Shown: in pieces, positions 11,194-23,785 of the stretch | Layout: every line of letters begins with the position of its first letter | Numbering within the stretch: position 1 is the stretch's first letter | Origin: Nitrospirota bacterium | GTDB taxonomy: Bacteria; Nitrospirota; Nitrospiria; Nitrospirales; Nitrospiraceae | Direction of reading: 5' to 3' | DNA length: 64,000 nt | Assembly (NCBI GenBank): GCA_963701855.1 | Contig: CAVPBK010000001.1 | Coordinates: 128,001-192,000, forward strand | Position numbers and translations under genes: made by a program | Notes under the pieces: model-generated | What the model saw: only the letters and a program-made list of their open reading frames with translations | Database searches by the model: none | Told to the model about the DNA's origin: nothing

Positions 11194-12477
11194 CTAGGGA
11201 GTCTTTGCACAACGAAACCCATAGCCGAAGTGCCGATTCGTCGGCTGGGCAGCGAACCGGTGCGCGGAACGCAGGAACTCAGGGACATAGAGCCAGGACC
11301 CACCCCGCACCACTTTAGCCTCACCAGTTGTCGGCCCTATTGGGTTCCGCCGCGGGCTGTTCTTATAATAGTCATAGTCATACCAGTCGCTGACCCATTC
11401 CCAGGCATTTCCGGCCATGTCATAGATGCCATAGGGACTCCGGCCTTCTTCGAAAGATCCTACCGGGACCAAGGCCAAATGGTTGTTCCATTCCTTTCTT
11501 CCGTAATTCGCGTGAAGCCGCGTAGGTGCTTCATTACCCCAGGGATAGATGCGTCCATCCGTCCCCCGCGCCGCCTTCTCCCACTCGGCCTCCGTCGGCA
11601 GCCTCTTGCCGGCCCATTTGCAGTACATGACAGCATCCTCCCAATCCACGTTTACAACCGGGCGTTTCTGATGTTGGGATTGATTCATAATATACCAGTC
11701 CGGCGGCTCCTCCATGTCAGTCGCCTCCAGATATTTGGCGTACTGTCCTACCGTCACCTCGTACTTGTCCATATAGAAGGCATTGAGGTAGACGTGATGT
11801 GCGGGACTTTCGTCATCTGCCAGATTACTCCCCATCGTGAATTCCCCTGCCGGCACCAGCGCCATCGGCACCCCTTGCATACCGACCTGCCCTTCCCCTC
11901 CCGTCAATCCGTCTAGTCTCAGCATGCTCGGCGAGGCAGTCGATCGCCGCTGTGAGAGTTTCGCTAGCAATTGTTGGTAGACAACCTGTTGCTCTTCGTT
12001 GAGACCCATCTCGTCGGCAGCGTCCAGAGTGTCCTTCGCCTGCTTCATCCTGTCGGGCGACGCCTTTCCGCCTGTGATCAGATCCTTCGCTTCGTCCAGC
12101 AATCGCCATACCTTCACTTCGTCCAGTAACTGCCACACCTTCGCTTTGCGTAATCGTGGTTTAGCCGATCCGACCACTGCAGATTTGGCATCCAGTTCCA
12201 GCGCGGTCTCGTAATGTTCTTCCGCGCATGCCCAGGCTTTCAAGCCCCGACAGGCCTCAGCCAAGTAGAAATGCGCCTGTGAATTCGACGGATCTTTCTT
12301 CACGCCGGCTTCCAGCTCCATGCGCGCCTCTGTATACTGTTTTTTCTTCAGTAGTTCCACCCATTTGGCAAATTCCTTATCGCCGGTATGGGCGGCCTGA
12401 GCGGTCACAGAGTTAGCGATCATCCCCGACCACATGAAGAGACACAACACGGTAAGTATTCTCACCATCTGCCTCAT
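11194..12477 (-). CDS. Exported TPR + formylglycine-generating-enzyme (SUMF1) domain protein
   Basis: Signal peptide, TPR, FTMGS, RLPTEAEWEKAARG, YDMAGNAWEW, RGGSW, GFRCA. Confidence 0.9.
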   Translation of the reverse strand: MRQMVRILTVLCLFMWSGMIANSVTAQAAHTGDKEFAKWVELLKKKQYTEARMELEAGVKKDPSNSQAHFYLAEACRGLKAWACAEEHYETALELDAKSAVVGSAKPRLRKAKVWQLLDEVKVWRLLDEAKDLITGGKASPDRMKQAKDTLDAADEMGLNEEQQVVYQQLLAKLSQRRSTASPSMLRLDGLTGGEGQVGMQGVPMALVPAGEFTMGSNLADDESPAHHVYLNAFYMDKYEVTVGQYAKYLEATDMEEPPDWYIMNQSQHQKRPVVNVDWEDAVMYCKWAGKRLPTEAEWEKAARGTDGRIYPWGNEAPTRLHANYGRKEWNNHLALVPVGSFEEGRSPYGIYDMAGNAWEWVSDWYDYDYYKNSPRRNPIGPTTGEAKVVRGGSWLYVPEFLRSAHRFAAQPTNRHFGYGFRCAKTP

Positions 12478-12589
12478 GGAAGCTCCTCTCCCAATTGTGA
12501 TTCCTTCGTGGATTCGACCTCGCCTGCTGGCACAGATCACGAGTCACGACAAGCCCGGCGAGCTTACCAGAAAACGAAAACGGTGGTCA

Positions 12590-13000
12590 TGAGCTCAACG
12601 GTTCCCCCTCTTGCGCCCGTCGAGCTACCACTACGATGCTCCCCTCAAGCTTGCTCGTTATCTCTCTCGGGATGGGGGCTGATTGATCTTCCACTGCGCA
12701 CAGCTTTCTCACCCGCCCACCCACTGGCACGCCGAGACGTGCCATTAGCCCGGGCGAGGGCCCTCCAATCCTCTTTACCTCTCTTGAAGGGAGTGGCAAA
12801 GGCTGCCCTTTACAGCGTGCATCGAACGAGCACCGTTTCACTGTGCGCGTTCTGCGAGCAAGAAGGGCACCTGGCCGCTCCATCCCCATCCTTCCGAGGC
12901 CGCGCGTTGCGCGAGCACAAAAGATCATCAGGCTCCATCCCGTATTCTGCTCCGCAAGCAAGGGATCAGCACAGATGTCATTCCACCCATTTTTTTCTCC
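12590..13000. repeat. Repeat family C copy
   Basis: Shares TTCTGCGAGCAAGAAGGGCACCTGGCCGC and GAGGCCGCGCGTTGCGCGAGCAC blocks with 9930-10340. Confidence 0.75.
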
Positions 13001-13037
13001 AGCTAGCCCTGCCGACATCGAGGCCGATCGCATCGCT

Positions 13038-13400
13038 TCACTTGGCGAGGGTCCGCACATAGGTCAGCACGTCTCTGCTCTCTTTCTCCGAGAGGCGGAC
13101 ATCCCAAGGCGGCATGTTCGGTTTGCCGTCATGGATAGTCTTGATCAGGTCGGCATCGGATTTCTTTCTGGTCGATGGTGATGTGAGGTTAGCCGGATCC
13201 GGTCCACGAAGAAACTTGTACCCATCCCCTCCACCCTCCGGCCCGTGGCAACCGGTGCAGTATCTGACAAACAGGATCTTTCCACGCGCCACATCGCCGC
13301 TCCGAGCCCTGGGCTCAGCTTGTCCTAACGCCACAGTCCCGAATAAAAGGCCGCTCACAAGCCCGACTGTTGCCATCTTAAGCATCCAGCTCCGCTTCAT
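13038..13400 (-). CDS. Monohaem cytochrome c
   Basis: Signal peptide, CTGCH, distal Met in NMPPW. Confidence 0.92.
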   Translation of the reverse strand: MKRSWMLKMATVGLVSGLLFGTVALGQAEPRARSGDVARGKILFVRYCTGCHGPEGGGDGYKFLRGPDPANLTSPSTRKKSDADLIKTIHDGKPNMPPWDVRLSEKESRDVLTYVRTLAK

Positions 13401-13485
13401 AACATTTCCTTCCGTTCGGTGTGCCCTACCGGCTGCATGCAATCGAAGCCCTGCCTTCGATGTAGCAGATCGAGCCTCCAGACCA

Positions 13486-14050: not shown

Positions 14051-17000
14051 CTACACCCACTCCGGCGCATACTCCTTCCCTGCTTCTTTTTCTGCGAACC
14101 ATCGATACAGGGCCGGCAAGACCACCAACGTGAGTGCCGTCGAGGTAAAGAGGCCGCCGATGACGACGGTTGCGAGCGGCCGCTGGACTTCGGCACCGAT
14201 CCCCTGCGCGAGCGCCAATGGCAGCAGACCCAGCAGCGTCGTCATCATCGTCATGACGACGGGGCGAAGCCGGAGGACGCAACCGCTGACGATAGCCTGG
14301 TCCATCTGCGCGCCTTCGCTGCGCAACTGATTGATATAGGAGACCAGCACGATCCCGTTCCCCACCGCAAGGCCGAATAGTTCGATAAAGCCGATGGAAG
14401 CCGGCAGACTCAGATATTGTCCGCTCAGCCACAGAGACACAACGCCCCCGATCAAGGCGAAGGGGAGATTGATCATGATCAACGTCGCGTAACGGAGCGA
14501 GTGAAACGCCCAGAAGAGCAGAAAAAACACGAGCCCCAGCGTAATAGGCACCACGATTACCAGCCGCTCGTTGGCCCGCTCCATGTTCTCGAACGCTCCG
14601 CCCCACGTCATCTGGTACCCTTCAGGCAGGTGTACCAATGATTCCAGTTTCTGCCGCCCTTCATCCACGACGCTGCCGATGTCGCGCCCGACGACATTGA
14701 AGCCGATGTAGATGCGGCGCTTCACTTGCTCCCGGCTGATGCTGAACGGCCCTTCGCGCATCTCGATCGTGGCGAGTTCGCTCATCGGGATCAGCGCGCC
14801 GGACGCCGACTTCACCCGAATCTCTCCGATGGTGCCGATGCTGTTGCGTTGCAGTTCCGGGAACCGAAGCGTCAATTGAAACCGCCGCTCGCCTTCGTAG
14901 ACATGGGTCACCGCCTTGCCGCCGATCGCGGTGGTCACGATCTCCTGCACGTCGGCCACGTTAATGCCAAAACGGGCGATCTTCTGCCGGTCAATGTCGA
15001 GCGTCAGATAGGGCTGGCCGGCAATCTGCTCGACTTTGATGTCTTTGACGCCGTTGATCAGCTGCATCAAGGCGGCAATCTTCTCCGCCTTGTCGTGCAG
15101 CACATCAAGATCCTCCCCGTACAGCTTAATCGCGCATTCCGCCCTGACGCCGGAGATGAGCTCGTCCACCCGGTGTTGAATCGGCTGGCTCATGAGCACG
15201 GAGATGCCTGGAATCTCCGCCAGTTTTTTCCGGATGGCGTCGGTCAATTGCGGCTGAGTGGTCGCCGTCTTCCATGTGCTCCGATCACTCAGAGACACGA
15301 TTGGCTCGCTCTCGTTCAGTTCCTCCGGCCCTACAGCAATCTCCGGCCTGCCGATCTTGCTCACGGCCATCCGGACTTCTGGAAACTCCAGCATGACCTT
15401 ATGGGCTTGTTTCTCCATCTCTATGGACTCCGGCAGCGAGACGCTCGGCAGCCGAACAATCTTGGGCGTCAGAGTGCCTTCTTCTAGTAGTGGGATGAAC
15501 TCCCGTCCCACAAATGGAACAAGGGCAAGGCTGCAAAGCACGATCGCTGTCGAGCTGCCGAGCACGAGACTGCGATGCCGGAAGGTCCAGGTTAGCACCG
15601 GCACATAGCGCTGTTTCATCCAACCAGCGAGGCGCGTTTCTTCCGGATGGTCTCCACGCAAGATCAATGATGCGAGCACCGGCGACAGGGTCAACGTGAC
15701 TACGACCGAAGCCAAGAGAGCGATCACCAACGTGTAGGCCAGCGGTGCGAACATCTTCCCTTCCATGCCGTGGAGCGTCATCAGCGGCAAAAACACGACA
15801 CTGATGATCAGAATGCTAAACAGGATCGGCCGGCCCACTTCTTTCGTGGCCTGAAGAATCACCTCCGACGTACTCTTCTTCGTTGCGCCATGGTTCTGCG
15901 CCAGGTGCCGATAGACGTTTTCCACCACGACCAGCGATCCGTCCGCAATCTCGCCGATGGCGATGGCGAGTCCGCCGAGCGTCATCAAGTTGGCCGAGAG
16001 CCCCAGCCGCTGCATCACGATGAATGTGATCAGGGGAGTGACGATGAGCGAGACCGTCACCACGACGGCGCTGCGGACGTGGCCCAGAAAGAAAAAGAAG
16101 ACGAAGATCACCAGCACGATCCCTTCAATCAAAGCATCCCGCACCGTATTGATCGCCGCCGTGACCAACTCGGTGCGATCGTAAAAAGGCAGGAGCTTCG
16201 TGCCCGAAGGAAGGATATTGTTCTGCTGGAGATCTTCCACCTTGGTCTTCACCGCTTCGACTACCTGACGAGCATTGCCCCCGCGAATCATGAGCACGGT
16301 GCCAGCCACGACCTCCCGCTCGCCGTTGAGCACCACTGACCCAAGGCGGACGGCGTGGCCGATGCGGACTTCCGCGACATCACGAACGAAGACCGGGGTG
16401 CCGCCGGCCTCTTTCACGATGATGGACTCGATATCGCTCATTGTCTTGATGAGGCCCAGGCTGCGGACGATCGCCCGTTCTGCATGGCGCTCCAGCACAT
16501 TGCCACCGGCATTGGCATTGTTCTTTGCCACCGCGCTGTAAATGTCGTGGAGCGTCAGGTCGAACTTGCGGAGCTTGGCCGGATCGACCAGGACTTGATA
16601 CTGTTTGACGAACCCGCCCATGCCGTTCACATCGATCACGCCGGGCACGCTCTTGAGCAAGGGGCGCAAAACCCAGTCCTGGAGCGTGCGCTGATCCATC
16701 AACTCCGTCTCGATGATCTTGGGGTCGGTCTCCGCCGCATTCGGCCCTTCCACATAATATTGATAGACCTCGCCCAGCCCGGTACTCACAGGGGCCATGA
16801 CAGGCTCCAGCCCATCGGGCAATCGCTCCTTCGCCGCCATGATCCGTTCGAGAACCAACTGGCGGGCGAAGTAGATATCGACGTCGTCGTTGAACACGAC
16901 CGTGATCTGGGAGAGGGCGAATTTTGAAAGGGATCGGATCTCCGCTAAACCTGGCAGGCCGGTCATCTGGAGTTCGAGCGGATAGGTGATGAATCGTTCG

Positions 17001-17182
17001 ACTTCGACCGGTGAGAGACCGGGCGCGTCGGTCAGCACCTGCACCTGGATGTTCGTTACGTCGGGATACGCATCGATCGGGATAGACTGAAAGGCGAAGA
17101 CACCGGCGACGGACAACAGGCAGGCCAGGCCCAGAACCAGTATCCGCTGTCGCAGCGAAAATTCCAGAAGAGAGGCGATCAT
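14051..17182 (-). CDS. czcA: CusA/CzcA family heavy-metal RND permease
   Basis: IDAYPDVTNIQVQV, GLGEVYQY, DGSLVVVEN, GKMFAPLA, RLRPVVMT, GAEVQRPLATVVIGGL. Confidence 0.95.
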   Translation of the reverse strand: MIASLLEFSLRQRILVLGLACLLSVAGVFAFQSIPIDAYPDVTNIQVQVLTDAPGLSPVEVERFITYPLELQMTGLPGLAEIRSLSKFALSQITVVFNDDVDIYFARQLVLERIMAAKERLPDGLEPVMAPVSTGLGEVYQYYVEGPNAAETDPKIIETELMDQRTLQDWVLRPLLKSVPGVIDVNGMGGFVKQYQVLVDPAKLRKFDLTLHDIYSAVAKNNANAGGNVLERHAERAIVRSLGLIKTMSDIESIIVKEAGGTPVFVRDVAEVRIGHAVRLGSVVLNGEREVVAGTVLMIRGGNARQVVEAVKTKVEDLQQNNILPSGTKLLPFYDRTELVTAAINTVRDALIEGIVLVIFVFFFFLGHVRSAVVVTVSLIVTPLITFIVMQRLGLSANLMTLGGLAIAIGEIADGSLVVVENVYRHLAQNHGATKKSTSEVILQATKEVGRPILFSILIISVVFLPLMTLHGMEGKMFAPLAYTLVIALLASVVVTLTLSPVLASLILRGDHPEETRLAGWMKQRYVPVLTWTFRHRSLVLGSSTAIVLCSLALVPFVGREFIPLLEEGTLTPKIVRLPSVSLPESIEMEKQAHKVMLEFPEVRMAVSKIGRPEIAVGPEELNESEPIVSLSDRSTWKTATTQPQLTDAIRKKLAEIPGISVLMSQPIQHRVDELISGVRAECAIKLYGEDLDVLHDKAEKIAALMQLINGVKDIKVEQIAGQPYLTLDIDRQKIARFGINVADVQEIVTTAIGGKAVTHVYEGERRFQLTLRFPELQRNSIGTIGEIRVKSASGALIPMSELATIEMREGPFSISREQVKRRIYIGFNVVGRDIGSVVDEGRQKLESLVHLPEGYQMTWGGAFENMERANERLVIVVPITLGLVFFLLFWAFHSLRYATLIMINLPFALIGGVVSLWLSGQYLSLPASIGFIELFGLAVGNGIVLVSYINQLRSEGAQMDQAIVSGCVLRLRPVVMTMMTTLLGLLPLALAQGIGAEVQRPLATVVIGGLFTSTALTLVVLPALYRWFAEKEAGKEYAPEWV

Positions 17183-18375
17183 AGCGTCGGCTCGATCTTG
17201 TGGCGTTCCATCTCAGACTTGAGGACGAACGATCCCTTGGTCACAACCTGCTCGCCGGCGCTCACCCCCTCCAACACCGTTACTACCTCTCCCTGCTCGC
17301 TTCCCACCTTGACCATTCGCGCTTCGAAGTCATTCGTTCCCCGTTGAACAAATACCATCGTACCGGTTGGCCCGCTTTGGACTGCCTCGAGCGGCACAGT
17401 CAGGGCGTCCGGAGTCGGCGACGCATAGACGAGGACGGTGGCAAACATTTCCGGTTTCAGCAGCCGATCGGGATTCAGCACCGTCACCCGCAGGCGCATC
17501 GTACGGGTGGCCGGATCGAGCACATCCCCGATGTAGGTGATCGTTCCCGGAACGATGGCATGGGGATAGGCGAACACAATCACATTGACCTTCAGGTCCT
17601 TCCGGATGAACTCCACGTCCTTCTCCGGCACGTTGCCGACGACCCACACATCCGAAAGATCCGCGACGGTGAAGAGCTTCTGCTGCGTCTCGACCACCTC
17701 GCCCCTCGTGATTTTGCGCGTGATGACCCGGCCGTCGAAAGGCGCCCGTAGGGACACATCCGCCTTGATCGTATCCTCGCGATCCAGCCGTTCGACTTCC
17801 TGCCGGGGGACGCCGAGCAGTTCCAGACGGTTCCGCGCCTCGCGGGCTTCGGCTTGTGCCGTTTTCATCGTGGCCTCGCGGCGTTGCAACTCGGCCAGAC
17901 TCACAACCTTTTGTTCATACAGGTCCCTGGCACGCTCGTACGCCAGTTTCGCTTCGTGCAATTTTGCAGCAGATTTCAGATATGCCCCCTCCGCCACACC
18001 GAGGTCCGTACTGTGGAGCAACGCCAGCAAGGCGTCTTTCTTTACGTCTTGGCCGACATCCACATAGACCTTCACCACTCGGCCCCTGATGAGCGTGGTC
18101 ACCTCAGCCAGTTCATTTTCGTTGGCTTGAACTGTGGCGGGAAATTCCCGAGGTACCAGCAACTGGCCTCGGACAACCGGCGCGACCTCGATCACCGTCC
18201 GCGCGAGTTCTTCGGCTGTGAGATGGACAACTCCTGGCTTGTCGGCCACAACAGTCTTCTTAGCCTCACGCGCTTGATCGGGAGTTCTCTCGCAGGCAAT
18301 AAGCCCGGCGAACGCTAAGGCAACGAGGATAACGACTCTACGTCGATCGTGAAACGTGAAACGCTTCATGGTCAT
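17179..18375 (-). CDS. czcB: RND periplasmic adaptor (CzcB/CusB family)
   Basis: Lipoyl/hairpin MFP motifs (LRAPFDGRV, LFTVADLSDVWV, LKPEMFA); overlaps the czcA start. Confidence 0.92.
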   Translation of the reverse strand: MTMKRFTFHDRRRVVILVALAFAGLIACERTPDQAREAKKTVVADKPGVVHLTAEELARTVIEVAPVVRGQLLVPREFPATVQANENELAEVTTLIRGRVVKVYVDVGQDVKKDALLALLHSTDLGVAEGAYLKSAAKLHEAKLAYERARDLYEQKVVSLAELQRREATMKTAQAEAREARNRLELLGVPRQEVERLDREDTIKADVSLRAPFDGRVITRKITRGEVVETQQKLFTVADLSDVWVVGNVPEKDVEFIRKDLKVNVIVFAYPHAIVPGTITYIGDVLDPATRTMRLRVTVLNPDRLLKPEMFATVLVYASPTPDALTVPLEAVQSGPTGTMVFVQRGTNDFEARMVKVGSEQGEVVTVLEGVSAGEQVVTKGSFVLKSEMERHKIEPTL

Positions 18376-18411: not shown

Positions 18412-18736
18412 CGAAAAGCTCTCGATTTTACGGAAGAAATGGTCGGTCTAGATGCCTTTTGCCACGTTTCCGATGGAGGACCGTGGTGAAATGCGACAGT
18501 AGGGATTGCGGAGGCGAAGAACCGACAGGAGCGGTTACCACGTGAATGGAATGACCTTCGTGCTAGTTGTGATTTTTCACGAATGATCCCGACAAGGGAA
18601 CCGGGACAACGTGAATAAGACACCATCGTCCTTTAAGGGGACTGCCCGGCGTTGTTGTTCGTAGCGAGGCGAAGGAAGTGCGGCCAAACATGACCCCACT
18701 GGCATTCCAACCCTATTGTCTTCTGGAGATCTCTAA

Positions 18737-19075
18737 TCAAAACCCGTCGAGGGGCACTTTCTTCTTCGCTGCGTATTCGTCGTCGGTGATCAACCCGTCA
18801 TTGTGAATCTGCTTGAGTCGTTTCAGTTTTCCTTCGAGAGAAGAATCTGGATAAGCGGAAGGAGGCGATCCTTTTTCCTGTCCACCGTCTATCCGAGGAG
18901 CGTTCGATAAGAGCTGTTGATAGGCAAGGGCTAACTGTGGCGCCTCAGGGATCAGGAAAGTCCCAAGCCCGTTGTCCTCGTGAGGCAGGCGCTGATATGG
19001 CTCATAGAGAGCTCCGGCGATCATGCGCGGCGGATCCTGCCACATCAGCTCGCGGATGCTCGACATCGCATTGTG
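18737..19075 (-). pseudogene. 5'-truncated paralogue of the SHOCT lipoprotein at 19593-20534
   Basis: SSIRELMWQDP...LYE...LAYQQLL...LKRLKQIHNDGLITDDEY aligns with PNIRELVWENP...LYE...ISYQPLL...LKRLRDQGLITEEEY. Confidence 0.7.
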
Positions 19076-19079
19076 AGTG

Positions 19080-19430
19080 TTACTTGCCAAGACTCCGTAT
19101 GTAGGCGAGCACGTTCTGTATATCCTGCCCGTTGAGCCGGCTTTTCCACGCAGGCATTGTGCCGTGACCTTCACGAATCACTGTCCGCAGATCCGTATCC
19201 GATTTGCCCCTCACTTGTGGACCAGTCAAATCTGCCGGTGGCGGCCTGAGTGCTTCGCCCATGACTCCGTCTCCCTTTCCACCCTCTCCATGACACACCA
19301 CACAATTGATCGCATACAGTATTTTTCCTTTTGTGGAATCTCCGCTCTCGGCCGATGTCACTTGGGCGCCCACTCCTCCCGTAAATAAGCAGGATGCGGA
19401 AAACAGAACGAGAAGTTTCAAGCCATTCAC
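19080..19430 (-). CDS. Monohaem cytochrome c
   Basis: Signal peptide, CVVCH, GTMPAW. Confidence 0.92.
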   Translation of the reverse strand: MNGLKLLVLFSASCLFTGGVGAQVTSAESGDSTKGKILYAINCVVCHGEGGKGDGVMGEALRPPPADLTGPQVRGKSDTDLRTVIREGHGTMPAWKSRLNGQDIQNVLAYIRSLGK

Positions 19431-19502
19431 CTAGTCACCTCTTTCTTTGTTTAAACCGTGGCCGAAATCGTGATCATCAGTTATTTTAAAGGGCCGTGGT
19501 GA

Positions 19503-19518
19503 CGCAAGCCGCGTTCCA
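19503..19518 (-). promoter_or_regulatory. Putative sigma-54 promoter
   Basis: TGGAACGCGGCTTGCG (GG-N10-GC) upstream of the cytochrome c at 19430. Confidence 0.5.
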
Positions 19519-19592
19519 TTCGCTTCCGTTGCGTCAGTATGAGTGACAGAGGGGAGCTTCATTTGGATGCGCCGGATTTGTCCAGTGGGCAT

Positions 19593-20534
19593 TTAGAGGC
19601 GCTCCAACAGCTGGTTTCTTTTATTGCGATACTCTTCCTCTGTGATCAAGCCCTGATCACGGAGTCGTTTCAAGACTTTCAACCGTTCTTCCATTGAGGG
19701 CTGATTGGTTTGCGCTTGAGGAAGACGTGAAGCACTGAAGCCATCTGGTAGTGCGGCCTTGGAGAGGGGCTCAGCCAGTAGAAGCGGTTGATAGGAGATC
19801 GAGATTTCATTGACTGGGGCACTCAGCACCCCGACTTCCTTATGTTGGATCACCGTCTGATGGTCACCGGGGACCAACTCATACAAATTGACCTGGCTCG
19901 AGAGCGGATTCTCCCAAACCAGCTCACGGATGTTCGGCGCAGTCACGGCATATCGATAGTTGGCCAGGAGCAGATGGAGGTGCGACCCTTCCATAAACCA
20001 CCCGCCGGAGGTGATCTCGGAGACGTCCGGTGCGCCAGGCCGGCTCAGTCCAAAGACCACCCACTCTGTTGGTTGTGCCTGGGCGAAGGCGAGGCTTAAG
20101 GTCCGGCTCAGGTAGTCGACTTCATCCTGCGTTAATGCATCATTGATTAGCCCCTTGGGCAATGAAAACAAGACGACCGGCTCACCCTGTCTTTGAACAC
20201 GAAGACTGCTCAGGATGATTTTCCATTCCTCGGGACTGAGCGTGAACGGATGAGAAAAGTTCGGTACGCGGTCTCGGCGTAATCCCGGGGACGGTCCTTG
20301 TAGCCGGACGAACCGATCCTCTCCCTCACACTCTCCGCAGACCATGCGACAATTTTCACAGGCCAAGCGAGGCGGGTGTGCCGGCCCAGCACAACCCTGA
20401 AGCAGGCCGGCGATTAGACCTCCGGTGAGCATTGCCACGACCACGCAGGCGCTTGTCGCACGTCGAACTCGCGCATAGCCGTGCGACGCGCTGACCTGAT
20501 GATCTTCCTGGAATTCTCGTTTGTGGGCTGTCAC
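19593..20534 (-). CDS. Lipoprotein with Cys-rich N-terminus and C-terminal SHOCT domain
   Basis: Lipobox LQGC, CENCRMVCGEC, SHOCT motif; start uncertain. Confidence 0.8.
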   Translation of the reverse strand: MTAHKREFQEDHQVSASHGYARVRRATSACVVVAMLTGGLIAGLLQGCAGPAHPPRLACENCRMVCGECEGEDRFVRLQGPSPGLRRDRVPNFSHPFTLSPEEWKIILSSLRVQRQGEPVVLFSLPKGLINDALTQDEVDYLSRTLSLAFAQAQPTEWVVFGLSRPGAPDVSEITSGGWFMEGSHLHLLLANYRYAVTAPNIRELVWENPLSSQVNLYELVPGDHQTVIQHKEVGVLSAPVNEISISYQPLLLAEPLSKAALPDGFSASRLPQAQTNQPSMEERLKVLKRLRDQGLITEEEYRNKRNQLLERL

Positions 20535-20667
20535 GTGATTCGTTCAGACTCCTGATTTACGCGATGATGTCTTGCCGCTCTTGCTCTGTCAACCGGTGCC
20601 TGACAGAGGGACGGTGGTGAGAGGAAGAGAGGAGGTAACACCCACACCGGTGAGTCGGCTGAGCCGT

Positions 20668-21183
20668 CTAGTCACGAAGCGGCTCATCGAGATCTCCGAC
20701 CGTCAGACGATCTGGAGGCCATCGGTAGGCGCCCCTTACAGCGGAGGCAACCATCGCATAGCCAGGTGGTTCTTTTCTGACAAATTGACCGAGGAGGTCT
20801 GGTGTCGGGTTTCCATCGATCAGATAGACCACGCCCTTTTCATAACCCGTGGTCGGTGACGGGGCTGGAATGCCGACCGTGGCCAGCGCATGACTGGCCC
20901 GGGCCTTCTTCAACGCAGACAGGTAGGTGCGCACCTGCTCGGGAGTCCATCCTCCGTGATTGGTGACCACGACTGAGGCGTCTCCGATGACCATCACATC
21001 AATCATTGGCATGGGGGCATGCGTCGCCGCGCTGAACGCAGGCGGTGGTGCAGGCTCCGGCCTTCCCCACTCCATGAAGACTCGGATCATGGCGAAGACA
21101 ATGAGCACGACGGCACCTCCGAGCAGTACCTGCCGACCGGACAGACGGTGGACCGGAACGGACTGCTCGGGTCGGGATGGCAT
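20668..21183 (-). CDS. Hypothetical membrane-anchored protein
   Basis: One N-terminal TM helix then a Pro-rich linker; co-oriented with neighbours. Confidence 0.6.
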   Translation of the reverse strand: MPSRPEQSVPVHRLSGRQVLLGGAVVLIVFAMIRVFMEWGRPEPAPPPAFSAATHAPMPMIDVMVIGDASVVVTNHGGWTPEQVRTYLSALKKARASHALATVGIPAPSPTTGYEKGVVYLIDGNPTPDLLGQFVRKEPPGYAMVASAVRGAYRWPPDRLTVGDLDEPLRD

Positions 21184-21307
21184 GGGACCCTTTCCTGGCA
21201 CAGATGAGCGCGCGAATCTTAGCACAGAGCTCAGCGAATTTCCTCGCTGGGCTCCCCTCCCTCAAGATATATCGACACCGGAGGAGGGAGCTGTGTGCCT
21301 GTCGAAA

Positions 21308-22771
21308 CTAGTACGCGAAGTCCAAGCCAACCAACATGGTCTGACCGAGCAGATCCCCGCCTCCTGTGCCGACCCCTTTGGTCCTGTAGGTGTTGTACTC
21401 AGCGTGTAGGGCCAGATCCGTCCGCGTGGATTGGTGAAGGAAGTACCGAACCAGAAACGTTTGGGAGTCAACATTGTTATAGTTGTGGTTAAAGGTGGGA
21501 TCCCCCTGCCGATCGTTGCGGATGATGTCGTACCGATAGGCGAAGAACCAATCGGGCACGTTCAGGAACGGAAGGAGCGTGGGATAGTAATCCAGCTCGA
21601 CAAAGCCGCCGTTCCACGAAGCGTTCTGGGCACCGGCGATGCCTTGAGAGACGAAGAGGTTCTTGCTGCTGTTGCCATGCACGAAGGCACCAAAGAGATT
21701 CCATTCTCCATTAAACGTGGTACTCAGATCCACGCCAATGTTGCTAAAGGGCTGGCCGCTTCCGCCCACAGCTTGACACGTGGGGCAAGTCGCGTTCACC
21801 GTGGTCGGGGCGTCCCCATAGACCCCGAAGAGGCCAATTCGATGGCCGGTCACGATGCCATATCCCCCGAAGGATTGCGTGACATGGCCGTAGAAATTGA
21901 CCCCACGTCCACCCGTACACGACTGGCCGGCCGGACAACCGCTCAACGGACCAGAAAACGTATTGGTTGACATTGCCGTGAAGCTGTAGCGGAAAAATCC
22001 ACTGGTGGGCGCGGTTTTCATCAGGCCCGCGAGTTCCGCTCCCGGTTGATTATCCCCGAGCCCAAACGAGTTGGGATTGGCGTAGGTGCTGGTGGATGTC
22101 CCGCTGATCGTGGCTGTATACGGTGTCCCCGGCGTGTAGTGGTACATGACAAATGGGGTGTTGAGCGTCGGACTGCGTTTTTCGCTGAACGGCAAATCCA
22201 ATTCGAATTTGCCTATACGGAAGTTCATGAGATAGTCGCCGGGCTTGCTCGTGATGCCCAGATATTTTTCCAGCCTCATGAGCCGAACGAAGGAGCTTTC
22301 CAAATCGCTGTCGCTGGCGCCGGTCCCAAATCCCGCGCTACCCAAGCCTGGCGTATACACGATGCCGAACGCCACATCGCGAGTCAATGTGCCGAAACTT
22401 AAAATATCGAGGCCGGTGAAGCCGAACCCACCCGTGCTGATCCCGCTGCCATCGGTACGGACACTAGCCGCCTGATAGCCGATGGTGGTCCGGAACGACA
22501 CGGGCCAAAAGCCCATGGTGATCCCTTCGTACGTGGGCATGTCCGCATCGGAGCCCATTTGATAGCCCCGATCCCGGAAGAGGTTGCCGAAGTCGTTCAA
22601 CTTTGGAAATCCAGGGACGTGGCAGACGTTGCACTTCATGTCGTATTTCCTCGCGAAGGCCGGAATGGCTTCCGCCTCAGGCGCACGATAGGTGAATTCA
22701 TGCAAGACGAGGACAATCAATACCAGCACGAGAAACGGAGCCCCTACGACGAATATCTCCCTATAGCGCAT
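21308..22771 (-). CDS. cyc2: Cyc2/Cyt572-like fused monohaem cytochrome c and outer-membrane beta-barrel
   Basis: GGAGG RBS; signal peptide, then AIPAFARKYDMKCNVCHVPGFPKLNDFGNLFRDRGY; amphipathic beta strands; C-terminal aromatic beta-signal (VGLDFAY). Confidence 0.8.
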   Translation of the reverse strand: MRYREIFVVGAPFLVLVLIVLVLHEFTYRAPEAEAIPAFARKYDMKCNVCHVPGFPKLNDFGNLFRDRGYQMGSDADMPTYEGITMGFWPVSFRTTIGYQAASVRTDGSGISTGGFGFTGLDILSFGTLTRDVAFGIVYTPGLGSAGFGTGASDSDLESSFVRLMRLEKYLGITSKPGDYLMNFRIGKFELDLPFSEKRSPTLNTPFVMYHYTPGTPYTATISGTSTSTYANPNSFGLGDNQPGAELAGLMKTAPTSGFFRYSFTAMSTNTFSGPLSGCPAGQSCTGGRGVNFYGHVTQSFGGYGIVTGHRIGLFGVYGDAPTTVNATCPTCQAVGGSGQPFSNIGVDLSTTFNGEWNLFGAFVHGNSSKNLFVSQGIAGAQNASWNGGFVELDYYPTLLPFLNVPDWFFAYRYDIIRNDRQGDPTFNHNYNNVDSQTFLVRYFLHQSTRTDLALHAEYNTYRTKGVGTGGGDLLGQTMLVGLDFAY

Positions 22772-22942
22772 AATCAACCTCCACGGTCGGATTGAAAGGT
22801 GCGATACGGTGACAACGTGACGTGGCACCAGGGGGCGAGCCTCGACCTCCAGCCTCCCCAATGCGGGATCGGTTCACCTCATCCTTCTCTTGTCCGGCTC
22901 GCCGTTGATGCGTGGTATCCATGTATCTCCTCAGGACAGGCC

Positions 22943-23785
22943 CTACTCCATCGTGACAGGACGGACGGGAAATTCAAATCGTGTGTCCACCGTTTCTTTC
23001 GGTTTGACGTCCACTTTCTGTCGAACAATATGCGGGTCGTCGTAGACCGCTCGGGAGGAGTCTATTTTCTTGATCTTGTATCCCTCATGCCAGGCCACGA
23101 GGGTATAGGTGCCTGGCGGTACGCCATGAATCTCAAACTTTCCAGCGGCATCGGTGATCGCAAAATATGGATGATCAAATCCGGCGATATAGCCAGACAT
23201 GTGGGTATGGACGTCGCACTGATAAGGCAACCCGACCCCAAGACCTCGAAGGAGAGTGTGATCAACCTCCCGGTTCGGAGTGGGCATAGCCACATTAAAA
23301 ATGCTGCCGCGGTTGGCAGTGAAGAAATGCGGATTGTGGAGAATTGGGTCGAAATTAATTATTGCGACGAGCTGTGTCCGGACAAACGCAAGGATATGTT
23401 CCTTGAATTGGCATAGCTGCGTGTCTGGTTCTTTGCCGGTCTGGTCCTGTCCCATATGGAGCCAATATTTCTCTTCAAGCGCTTTCCCCTTTTCGACCTG
23501 CTCCAGATACACCAGAACGTGCTGGAGCCCTTTGCTCTTTGGATCCACCTTCAACACCGGGGATGGTGCCGTTTCACCGCATGTATCCAGATCCGCCTTG
23601 ACCGGGAGCGGGGGAATCGTCGGAATCTCGCCTTCCCAGGTCGCCACGCCTTTGATCGTCCCGCCGTTCGAGACGTTAATAACCTCATACTCGGCAAAGG
23701 CGGCCTCCGAACCACCTGCCAACACGAGCAGACTGATCGCTAGTATACATGACCAATCCGTAATTCGAGTTTTGATCCGTGTCAT
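22943..23785 (-). CDS. Exported cupredoxin-like / carboxypeptidase-regulatory-like domain protein
   Basis: Signal peptide; PILHNPH and CDVHTHM (possible type-1 Cu ligands); TDAAGKFEIHGVPPGTYTLVAWHE. Confidence 0.8.
   Translation of the reverse strand: MTRIKTRITDWSCILAISLLVLAGGSEAAFAEYEVINVSNGGTIKGVATWEGEIPTIPPLPVKADLDTCGETAPSPVLKVDPKSKGLQHVLVYLEQVEKGKALEEKYWLHMGQDQTGKEPDTQLCQFKEHILAFVRTQLVAIINFDPILHNPHFFTANRGSIFNVAMPTPNREVDHTLLRGLGVGLPYQCDVHTHMSGYIAGFDHPYFAITDAAGKFEIHGVPPGTYTLVAWHEGYKIKKIDSSRAVYDDPHIVRQKVDVKPKETVDTRFEFPVRPVTME

Follow-up and report, generated by a model that had tools for sequence, protein, structure and literature searches.

The window analyzed here is a stretch of 64,000 nucleotides from a Nitrospirota bacterium (contig CAVPBK010000001.1 of assembly GCA_963701855.1, positions 128,001 to 192,000), and this text deals with a gene group around a porin-cytochrome of the Cyc2 type within it. 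As described in the initial annotation, five co-oriented open reading frames (ORFs) for envelope proteins are present. All are located on the minus strand, with intergenic regions of 124-171 bp:

22943-23785, minus strand: cupredoxin carrier of 280 aa, exported (predicted from model, Foldseek, VIA and invariant ligands)
21308-22771, minus strand: Cyc2/Cyt572-like monoheme cytochrome fused to a 16-strand porin, 487 aa (assigned by motif, model, Foldseek and Cyt572 alignment)
20668-21183 (alternative GTG start at 21225), minus strand: gene 3, a small single-helix membrane or exported accessory protein without family
19593-20534, minus strand: SHOCT protein of 313 aa, exported and lipidated here; it combines a conserved CxxC and a Nitrospirota domain lacking a name with a SHOCT domain at the C-terminus
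19080-19430, minus strand: gene 5, a small class I monoheme cytochrome c of 116 aa (c6-like, not Cyt579-like), accessory

A promoter and terminator scan of the locus gave signals at or below chance. The host genome contains amoA above the TIGR03080 cut-off and two open frames of 1,146 aa with an NxrA-like start of the product; the named homologues of the Cyc2 locus belong to Nitrospira. Judged from these genes the host is a comammox Nitrospira, which agrees with the nitrifier-like organism suspected before.

In the 487-aa protein the previously noted motif AIPAFARKY...DRG was found without deviation at A35-G69, behind a hydrophobic leader (segment 3-19) that ends with AEA at the same position as the published cleavage site of Cyt572, and the C-terminus is aromatic (...DFAY). 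According to Keffer et al. (10.1101/228056) Cyc2 proteins possess a signal peptide, AxPxFAR[QK][TY] upstream of a single CxxCH and PxL four residues downstream, and they comprise at least 365 aa and a 16-strand barrel similar to OprO/OprP. All of these sequence and fold properties are present in the 487-aa protein, the signal peptide being recognized by the hydrophobic segment and the AEA site, and among the 17,249 ORFs of the host genome it is the only one with the strict published motif. An AlphaFold2 model of the mature protein (111 sequences) reached a pLDDT of 95.8 and shows 16 strand elements behind a short helical heme domain. Foldseek with the barrel model ranked OprP and OprO first (E 1e-10 to 5e-10), and VIA-align of the Cyc2 model revealed general and anion porins at Z 22-24 (2o4v: Z 22.8, rmsd 3.6, 325 residues aligned). 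These phosphate porins are the best structural matches to the barrel, but they are 12-16% identical and contain no heme domain. The same architecture and template were reported for Cyc2 (10.1101/228056). On the basis of motif and model the protein belongs to the Cyc2 family, with a heme domain and a predicted 16-strand OprP-like barrel, as had been proposed. Searches of Pfam, NCBIfam and PDB sequences with the 487-aa protein gave no match; the missing NCBIfam match is uninformative, because true Cyt572 has none either. H456 is a candidate for the sixth heme ligand, conserved in 98% of the close rows of the alignment and in 77% of all rows, and absent from Cyt572. The free N-terminal amine, which is a heme ligand in cytochrome f, would be an alternative.

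The protein encoded directly upstream, annotated as cupredoxin-like with the pattern H...CDVHTHM, is a predicted type-1 copper electron carrier with a cupredoxin fold and the full ligand set. In the model (pLDDT 90) a cupredoxin domain (about residues 104-203) is inserted into a transthyretin-like/carboxypeptidase-regulatory beta-sandwich. The top Foldseek matches were cupredoxins, plastocyanin, amicyanin and pseudoazurin, and VIA aligned residues 104-203 with 4hcf (Z 11.0, rmsd 2.0, 84 aligned) and residues 33-277 with 8fia (Z 11.1, rmsd 2.6, 92 aligned). All 70 homologues in the alignment retain His150, Cys190, His193 and Met196 (C190-x2-H193-x2-M196) without exception. A His followed by Cys-xn-His-xn-Met was detected in 46 of the 48 family ORFs of the compared loci, the other two also containing C-x2-H-x2-M, and the latter pattern is kept in 4 of 4 host paralogues listed. 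The source annotations of this family read 'hypothetical', 'carboxypeptidase regulatory-like' and twice 'plastocyanin'. The closest host paralogue (53%; L170:5797-8341, host C9:221796-224340) is located ahead of a heme-less barrel of the alginate-export family, and a broken copy of it was found at host C6:1525710-1526528. Two further host regions (L171:3535-11365 and L172:879-7174, on C4 and C13) contain MnxG-like multicopper oxidases (1,579 aa; the second split over two ORFs), behind which cupredoxins of this family and a small protein of metal-binding-like type are encoded.

Synteny was analyzed with 79 distinct full-length genes of the window's cyc2 clade, the window included and fragments and duplicates dropped; the ORFs of the host genome, a set that includes spurious frames, served as background, and kinship makes all counts non-independent. 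The gene directly upstream of cyc2 encodes the cupredoxin in 33 cases and a Cyt579-like cytochrome in 24; the other states are a signaling gene (5), a SHOCT protein (3), other genes (12) and a contig edge (2). A carrier of one of the two types on either side of cyc2 was identified at 65 of 79 genes versus 5 of 959 background ORFs, and the SHOCT protein, the commonest non-redox neighbor, at 58 of 79 versus 6 of 959. The upstream carrier state changed at least five times on the tree, and L050 and L147 contain both carrier types. In Nitrospira defluvii (L144) the order is cupredoxin, cyc2 and SHOCT protein, with a Cyc2 orthologue 76-78% identical to that of the window. For the upstream cytochromes of 7 of 7 relatives NF033864 was the best family, with 72-113 bits versus a cut-off of 280 bits; by these scores they are relatives, not members, of the cytochrome 579 family. 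The conserved core is thus carrier, cyc2 and SHOCT protein. The five-gene module proposed in the initial annotation had to be rejected as a conserved unit: genes 3 and 5 are arranged in this way only in L091 and L092, the two nearest relatives (2 of 79 named loci), and the cupredoxin is one of two occupants of the carrier slot. Matches to Cyc2 are present in 59 of 151 genomes of the family, 34 of them at E < 1e-100, and the cassette is an accessory, patchily distributed trait. PepSY-cytochrome c fusions, a third carrier type, are located beside cyc2 at L108:8459-9130 and L155:3672-4292. Homologues (54-58%) with an adjacent carrier also occur in L164 and L169, from metagenome-assembled genomes (MAGs) labelled Elusimicrobiota and Nitrospinota, which may indicate transfer or mis-binning.

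The 313-aa protein contains a C-terminal SHOCT domain above cut-off, which had been left unnamed. Its earlier description as a Cys-rich lipoprotein holds for lipidation in the window, but Cys-rich was overstated, since the orthologue rows have just one CxxC in common (44 of 46), and 16 of 46 show a loose lipobox pattern. Domain scans yielded SHOCT as the only name, and the atlas only unnamed Nitrospirota clusters. Host paralogues lack the CxxC and are located in phosphate, molybdate and sulfate uptake regions; two of them follow porin-like genes that have no Pfam match. By this analogy the SHOCT protein probably serves OprP-like barrels as an accessory and is not itself a redox part. Gene 3 has one hydrophobic segment and gave no match in Pfam or NCBIfam; among the 79 named loci its orthologues were detected in L091 and L092 (86%), with a weak tblastn match in L125. 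Gene 5, correctly recognized as a cytochrome c gene, encodes a class I protein (PF13442 54 bits, PF00034 41 bits, both above cut-off) that reached 19 bits (E 0.001) against NF033864, and orthologues are located at the same position in L091 (93%) and L092 (68%).

Because two unrelated one-electron carriers were repeatedly exchanged beside a heme-plugged porin, this arrangement suggests a hand-off of electrons in the periplasm. We lean slightly towards the interpretation that the cassette moves electrons inward from Fe(II) or Mn(II), supplementing nitrification. A metal ion would enter the pore and reduce the single heme plugging the periplasmic side. The cupredoxin, or the Cyt579-like cytochrome in relatives, perhaps together with the small cytochrome c, would then take the electron to the periplasmic pool, and this pool would feed a terminal oxidase and reverse electron transport. 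Carriers of these classes usually have a high potential, which favors inward flow and argues against the opposite direction, in which the module would reduce soluble Fe(III), humics or Mn(III) under oxygen shortage. Moreover, neither a quinol dehydrogenase nor a multiheme gene was found among the conserved neighbors at the compared loci. A potential of -130 mV measured for a cluster-1 Cyc2 (PMC13692758) indicates that potentials vary widely and speaks for outward transfer, to which we nevertheless give little credence. Inward transfer agrees with the pairing of rusticyanin with Cyc2 in Acidithiobacillus and of Cyt579 with Cyt572 in Leptospirillum (PMC13741234), which are the same carrier classes as here.

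Two further features are located downstream of gene 5:

18712-19068, minus strand: remnant, the 3' end of a SHOCT-protein gene from a cytochrome-type cassette (protein and DNA identity)
14051-18375, minus strand: CusA/CzcA-family heavy-metal RND pump and adaptor (TIGR00914 above cut-off), context outside the cassette

The remnant, directly behind gene 5, had been missed. Its protein is 78-81% identical to SHOCT proteins of the clade carrying the Cyt579-like cytochrome, in contrast to 28% identity to the window's own SHOCT protein, and its DNA is 79-84% identical to six loci of the Cyt579-like type. It is retained in L092 and largely lost in L091. A locus of the same genus, L052, shares both flanks with the window (79-88% DNA identity over 13.0-18.6 kb and 24.1-32 kb), and at the same site it contains a cassette with Cyt579-like gene, cyc2 and SHOCT-protein gene, its cyc2 being about 70% identical to that of the window. 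Since the flanks are shared and the remnant matches the SHOCT protein of the other clade, the copper-type cassette most likely took the place of a cytochrome-type cassette that had been resident at this site. The cyc2 of L052 (L052:8647-10324) apparently contains an internal duplication that disrupts it (residues 35-197 are followed by 63-463), which may be an assembly error or decay.

The position of the cassette directly upstream of the CusA/CzcA pump could point to surface metal handling, in which Fe(II), Mn(II) or Cu(I) would be oxidized for detoxification or uptake and the electrons dumped with no energy gain. However, the pump region is common to the same-site loci L052, L091 and L092 and absent from other cyc2 contexts, and a functional link between cassette and pump was rejected, the adjacency being specific to this one chromosomal site. 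In the fold match plastocyanin is equalled by FtrB (Z 10.4) and EfeO (Z 10.1), two cupredoxins of iron uptake, and both the uptake regions around the SHOCT paralogues and the patchiness of the strong matches would fit metal handling. On the other hand, neither a permease nor a TonB gene is among the conserved neighbors of the compared loci, the full His/Cys/His/Met set is typical of electron carriers, and a cytochrome substitutes for the cupredoxin in relatives. We regard metal handling without energy gain as unlikely.

The relationship to Cyt572 was analyzed with references from genomes above the cytochrome 579 cut-off (28 of 251 genomes of the phylum, all belonging to family f13); in four of five f13 genomes searched a Cyc2 match was obtained. 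The protein of L067 starts with AANA/YPGFARKYNF, which is the published N-terminus of Cyt572 (PMC13741234). The 487-aa protein could be aligned with this orthologue over residues 37-487 (25% identity, E 2e-27). The trees were calculated from the best 150 of 2,215 matches to the Nitrospira profile after removal of fragments, with no cluster-1 or cluster-2 references included. In the quick trees (74 and 40 rows) the window's Nitrospira clade, Cyt572 and four unnamed proteins were located on one side (SH-aLRT 98), and in a careful tree of 25 rows the branch joining Nitrospira and Cyt572 had a support of 88/97, unstarred. A topology uniting the window's clade with the f3 Cyc2s was rejected in the careful analysis (p-AU 0.001); f3 is a family of the same class, possibly Manganitrophaceae, and its Cyc2s are 30-33% identical and have none of the partners. 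The window's clade is made up of nitrifiers and uncultured Nitrospirota; in family f3 NxrA was not found with the query used. Both the full-length alignment and the tree position agree with the suspected closeness to Leptospirillum Cyt572. The position on the side of Cyt572, the cluster-3 reference, suggests cluster-3 membership as a proxy, read without cluster-1 and cluster-2 outgroups. A sequence-network paper linked Cyc572 to homologues from Nitrospira and Acidobacteria (PMC10654088), and cluster 3 was called the most uncertain Cyc2 group in published work. At L184, L186 and L187 (family f3) cyc2 is flanked by large surface proteins with Ig, PKD and InlB repeats and not by the Nitrospira partners; L187 contains two cyc2-like genes.

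With Cyt572 the window protein shares the leader cleaved one residue before PxFARKY, the single CxxCH, PxL and the 16-strand barrel, and Nitrospira relatives place a Cyt579-like gene beside cyc2, which resembles the Cyt572/Cyt579 system. In contrast to Cyt572, the window protein is about 80 residues shorter and 27% identical in the multiple alignment, H456 is conserved, the carrier is a cupredoxin, a SHOCT partner is present and the host is a nitrifier of neutral pH. The carrier gene is adjacent here, but in Leptospirillum cyt572 and cyt579 are not linked to each other (PMC10654088). The rus operon of Acidithiobacillus ferrooxidans (cluster 2) likewise combines genes for the cytochrome-porin, a blue-copper protein and a c-type cytochrome, but its linkage of cyc2, cyc1, cup, coxBACD and rus has no equivalent in the window, where family scans of the locus detected oxidase genes neither within the cassette nor next to it. 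In its fold the window cupredoxin resembles plastocyanin and amicyanin more closely than rusticyanin (Foldseek rank 30 and below), and its cupredoxin domain is set into another domain.

For distant Cyc2 clades of Nitrospira 29 loci were picked by hand, and the three partner families were found again next to cyc2. One clade of 16 loci showed the order cyc2, dihaem Cyt579-like cytochrome, cupredoxin and hybrid histidine kinase, co-oriented in 11 cases; in the remaining loci the kinase is reversed (two) or located upstream (one), or the sequence stops at a contig edge (two). The kinase-linked loci are L221:1038-6970 (N. defluvii, G366:C1), L192, L196, L198-L200, L204-L206, L209, L210 and L214, and in L209 cytochrome and cupredoxin are encoded within one ORF. 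The genome of N. defluvii contains both the cupredoxin-cyc2-SHOCT order and the kinase-linked module. These loci raise the question whether the porin-cytochrome, together with its carriers, could sense the redox state outside the cell, or the Fe(II) level, and signal it to a two-component or chemotaxis system. The kinase-linked paralogue is a candidate extracellular redox sensor, and for this paralogue the interpretation is a serious one, although the 11 kinase loci may have one origin and the periplasmic part of the kinase has no heme motif. A subclade near the window gene also points in this direction: at L136:2785-11210, L165:2806-10743 and L166 a pair of chemotaxis receptor genes, of which one encodes PAS domains, encloses cyc2 and one or two Cyt579-like genes. 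At the window locus itself the sensor interpretation is weak. No sensor is encoded there, and in the window's clade a co-oriented sensor follows cyc2 in 3 of the 58 genes with enough flank (20 with short flanks omitted), close to the background of 19 of 960 host ORFs; here we consider a sensor function improbable. Downstream of a full cyc2, L194:10202-10567, L195:9284-9655, L215 and L218 encode proteins of about 120 aa with a signal peptide and a Cyc2-type heme domain but no barrel.

Several observations weigh against inward electron transfer from metals. By strand alternation the pore is lined by 9 acidic and 9 basic residues and is not clearly cation-selective. Besides the low identity of 27%, the branch of Cyt572 is long and its composition odd, Cyt572 may not represent cluster 3 (10.1101/228056), and a sand-filter preprint found the Cyc2s of Nitrospira to group apart from both Cyt572 and the Manganitrophus protein (10.1101/2024.12.25.630300). 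The cyt572 loci, from four places in three f13 genomes, contain none of the three partner families. Both carrier families are generic in Nitrospira, and the cupredoxin is not specific for Cyc2: its host paralogues precede the gene of an alginate-export barrel and hydrogenase-4-like genes or follow the gene of an MnxG-like oxidase, and Cyt579-like matches occur in 39 of 39 family genomes with up to 13 per genome. Activity or expression data for Nitrospira Cyc2 were not found in the literature searched.

Cluster-3 cyc2 in Nitrospira and the hypothesis of metal oxidation are already in print (10.1101/2024.12.25.630300; 10.1101/2021.11.15.468770; PMC7005843). Nitrospira is often more abundant in groundwater sand filters than the nitrite supply explains, and oxidation of Fe or Mn was proposed for cluster-3 Cyc2, which was detected in 6 of 7 MAGs of Nitrospira and falls into three clades there (10.1101/2024.12.25.630300); N. 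defluvii was flagged by FeGenie (PMC7005843). In the literature searched we found neither the exchange of carriers nor the partnership with a cupredoxin nor the kinase-linked clade described, a statement on which the preprint supplements may bear; the published accounts of cluster-3 Cyc2 in Nitrospira that were consulted also give no gene neighborhood. The likely electron acceptors of the window's Cyc2 can now be named and appear exchangeable, and with a cultured species containing the same core the guess from a marker gene becomes a defined reconstitution experiment. Since cultured N. defluvii holds both modules, lithotrophy and sensing would be testable in one strain. A more far-reaching view, which we put forward as doubtful, is that of a plug-in cassette for metal lithotrophy, the nearest neutral-pH kin of Cyt572, in which a blue-copper family not described so far and a Cyt579-like cytochrome take turns as carrier and whose sister paralogue was rewired as input of a histidine kinase. 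If true, the kinase-linked paralogue would be the first Cyc2-based extracellular redox sensor. Counts of cyc2 in metagenomes may mix catabolic and kinase-linked paralogues.

Behind the RND pump, at 11194-13442 of the window, a protein with TPR and FGE-sulfatase domains is encoded, as is another small cytochrome c that shares 43% identity with gene 5, and host contig C1 contains many small c-type cytochrome genes.

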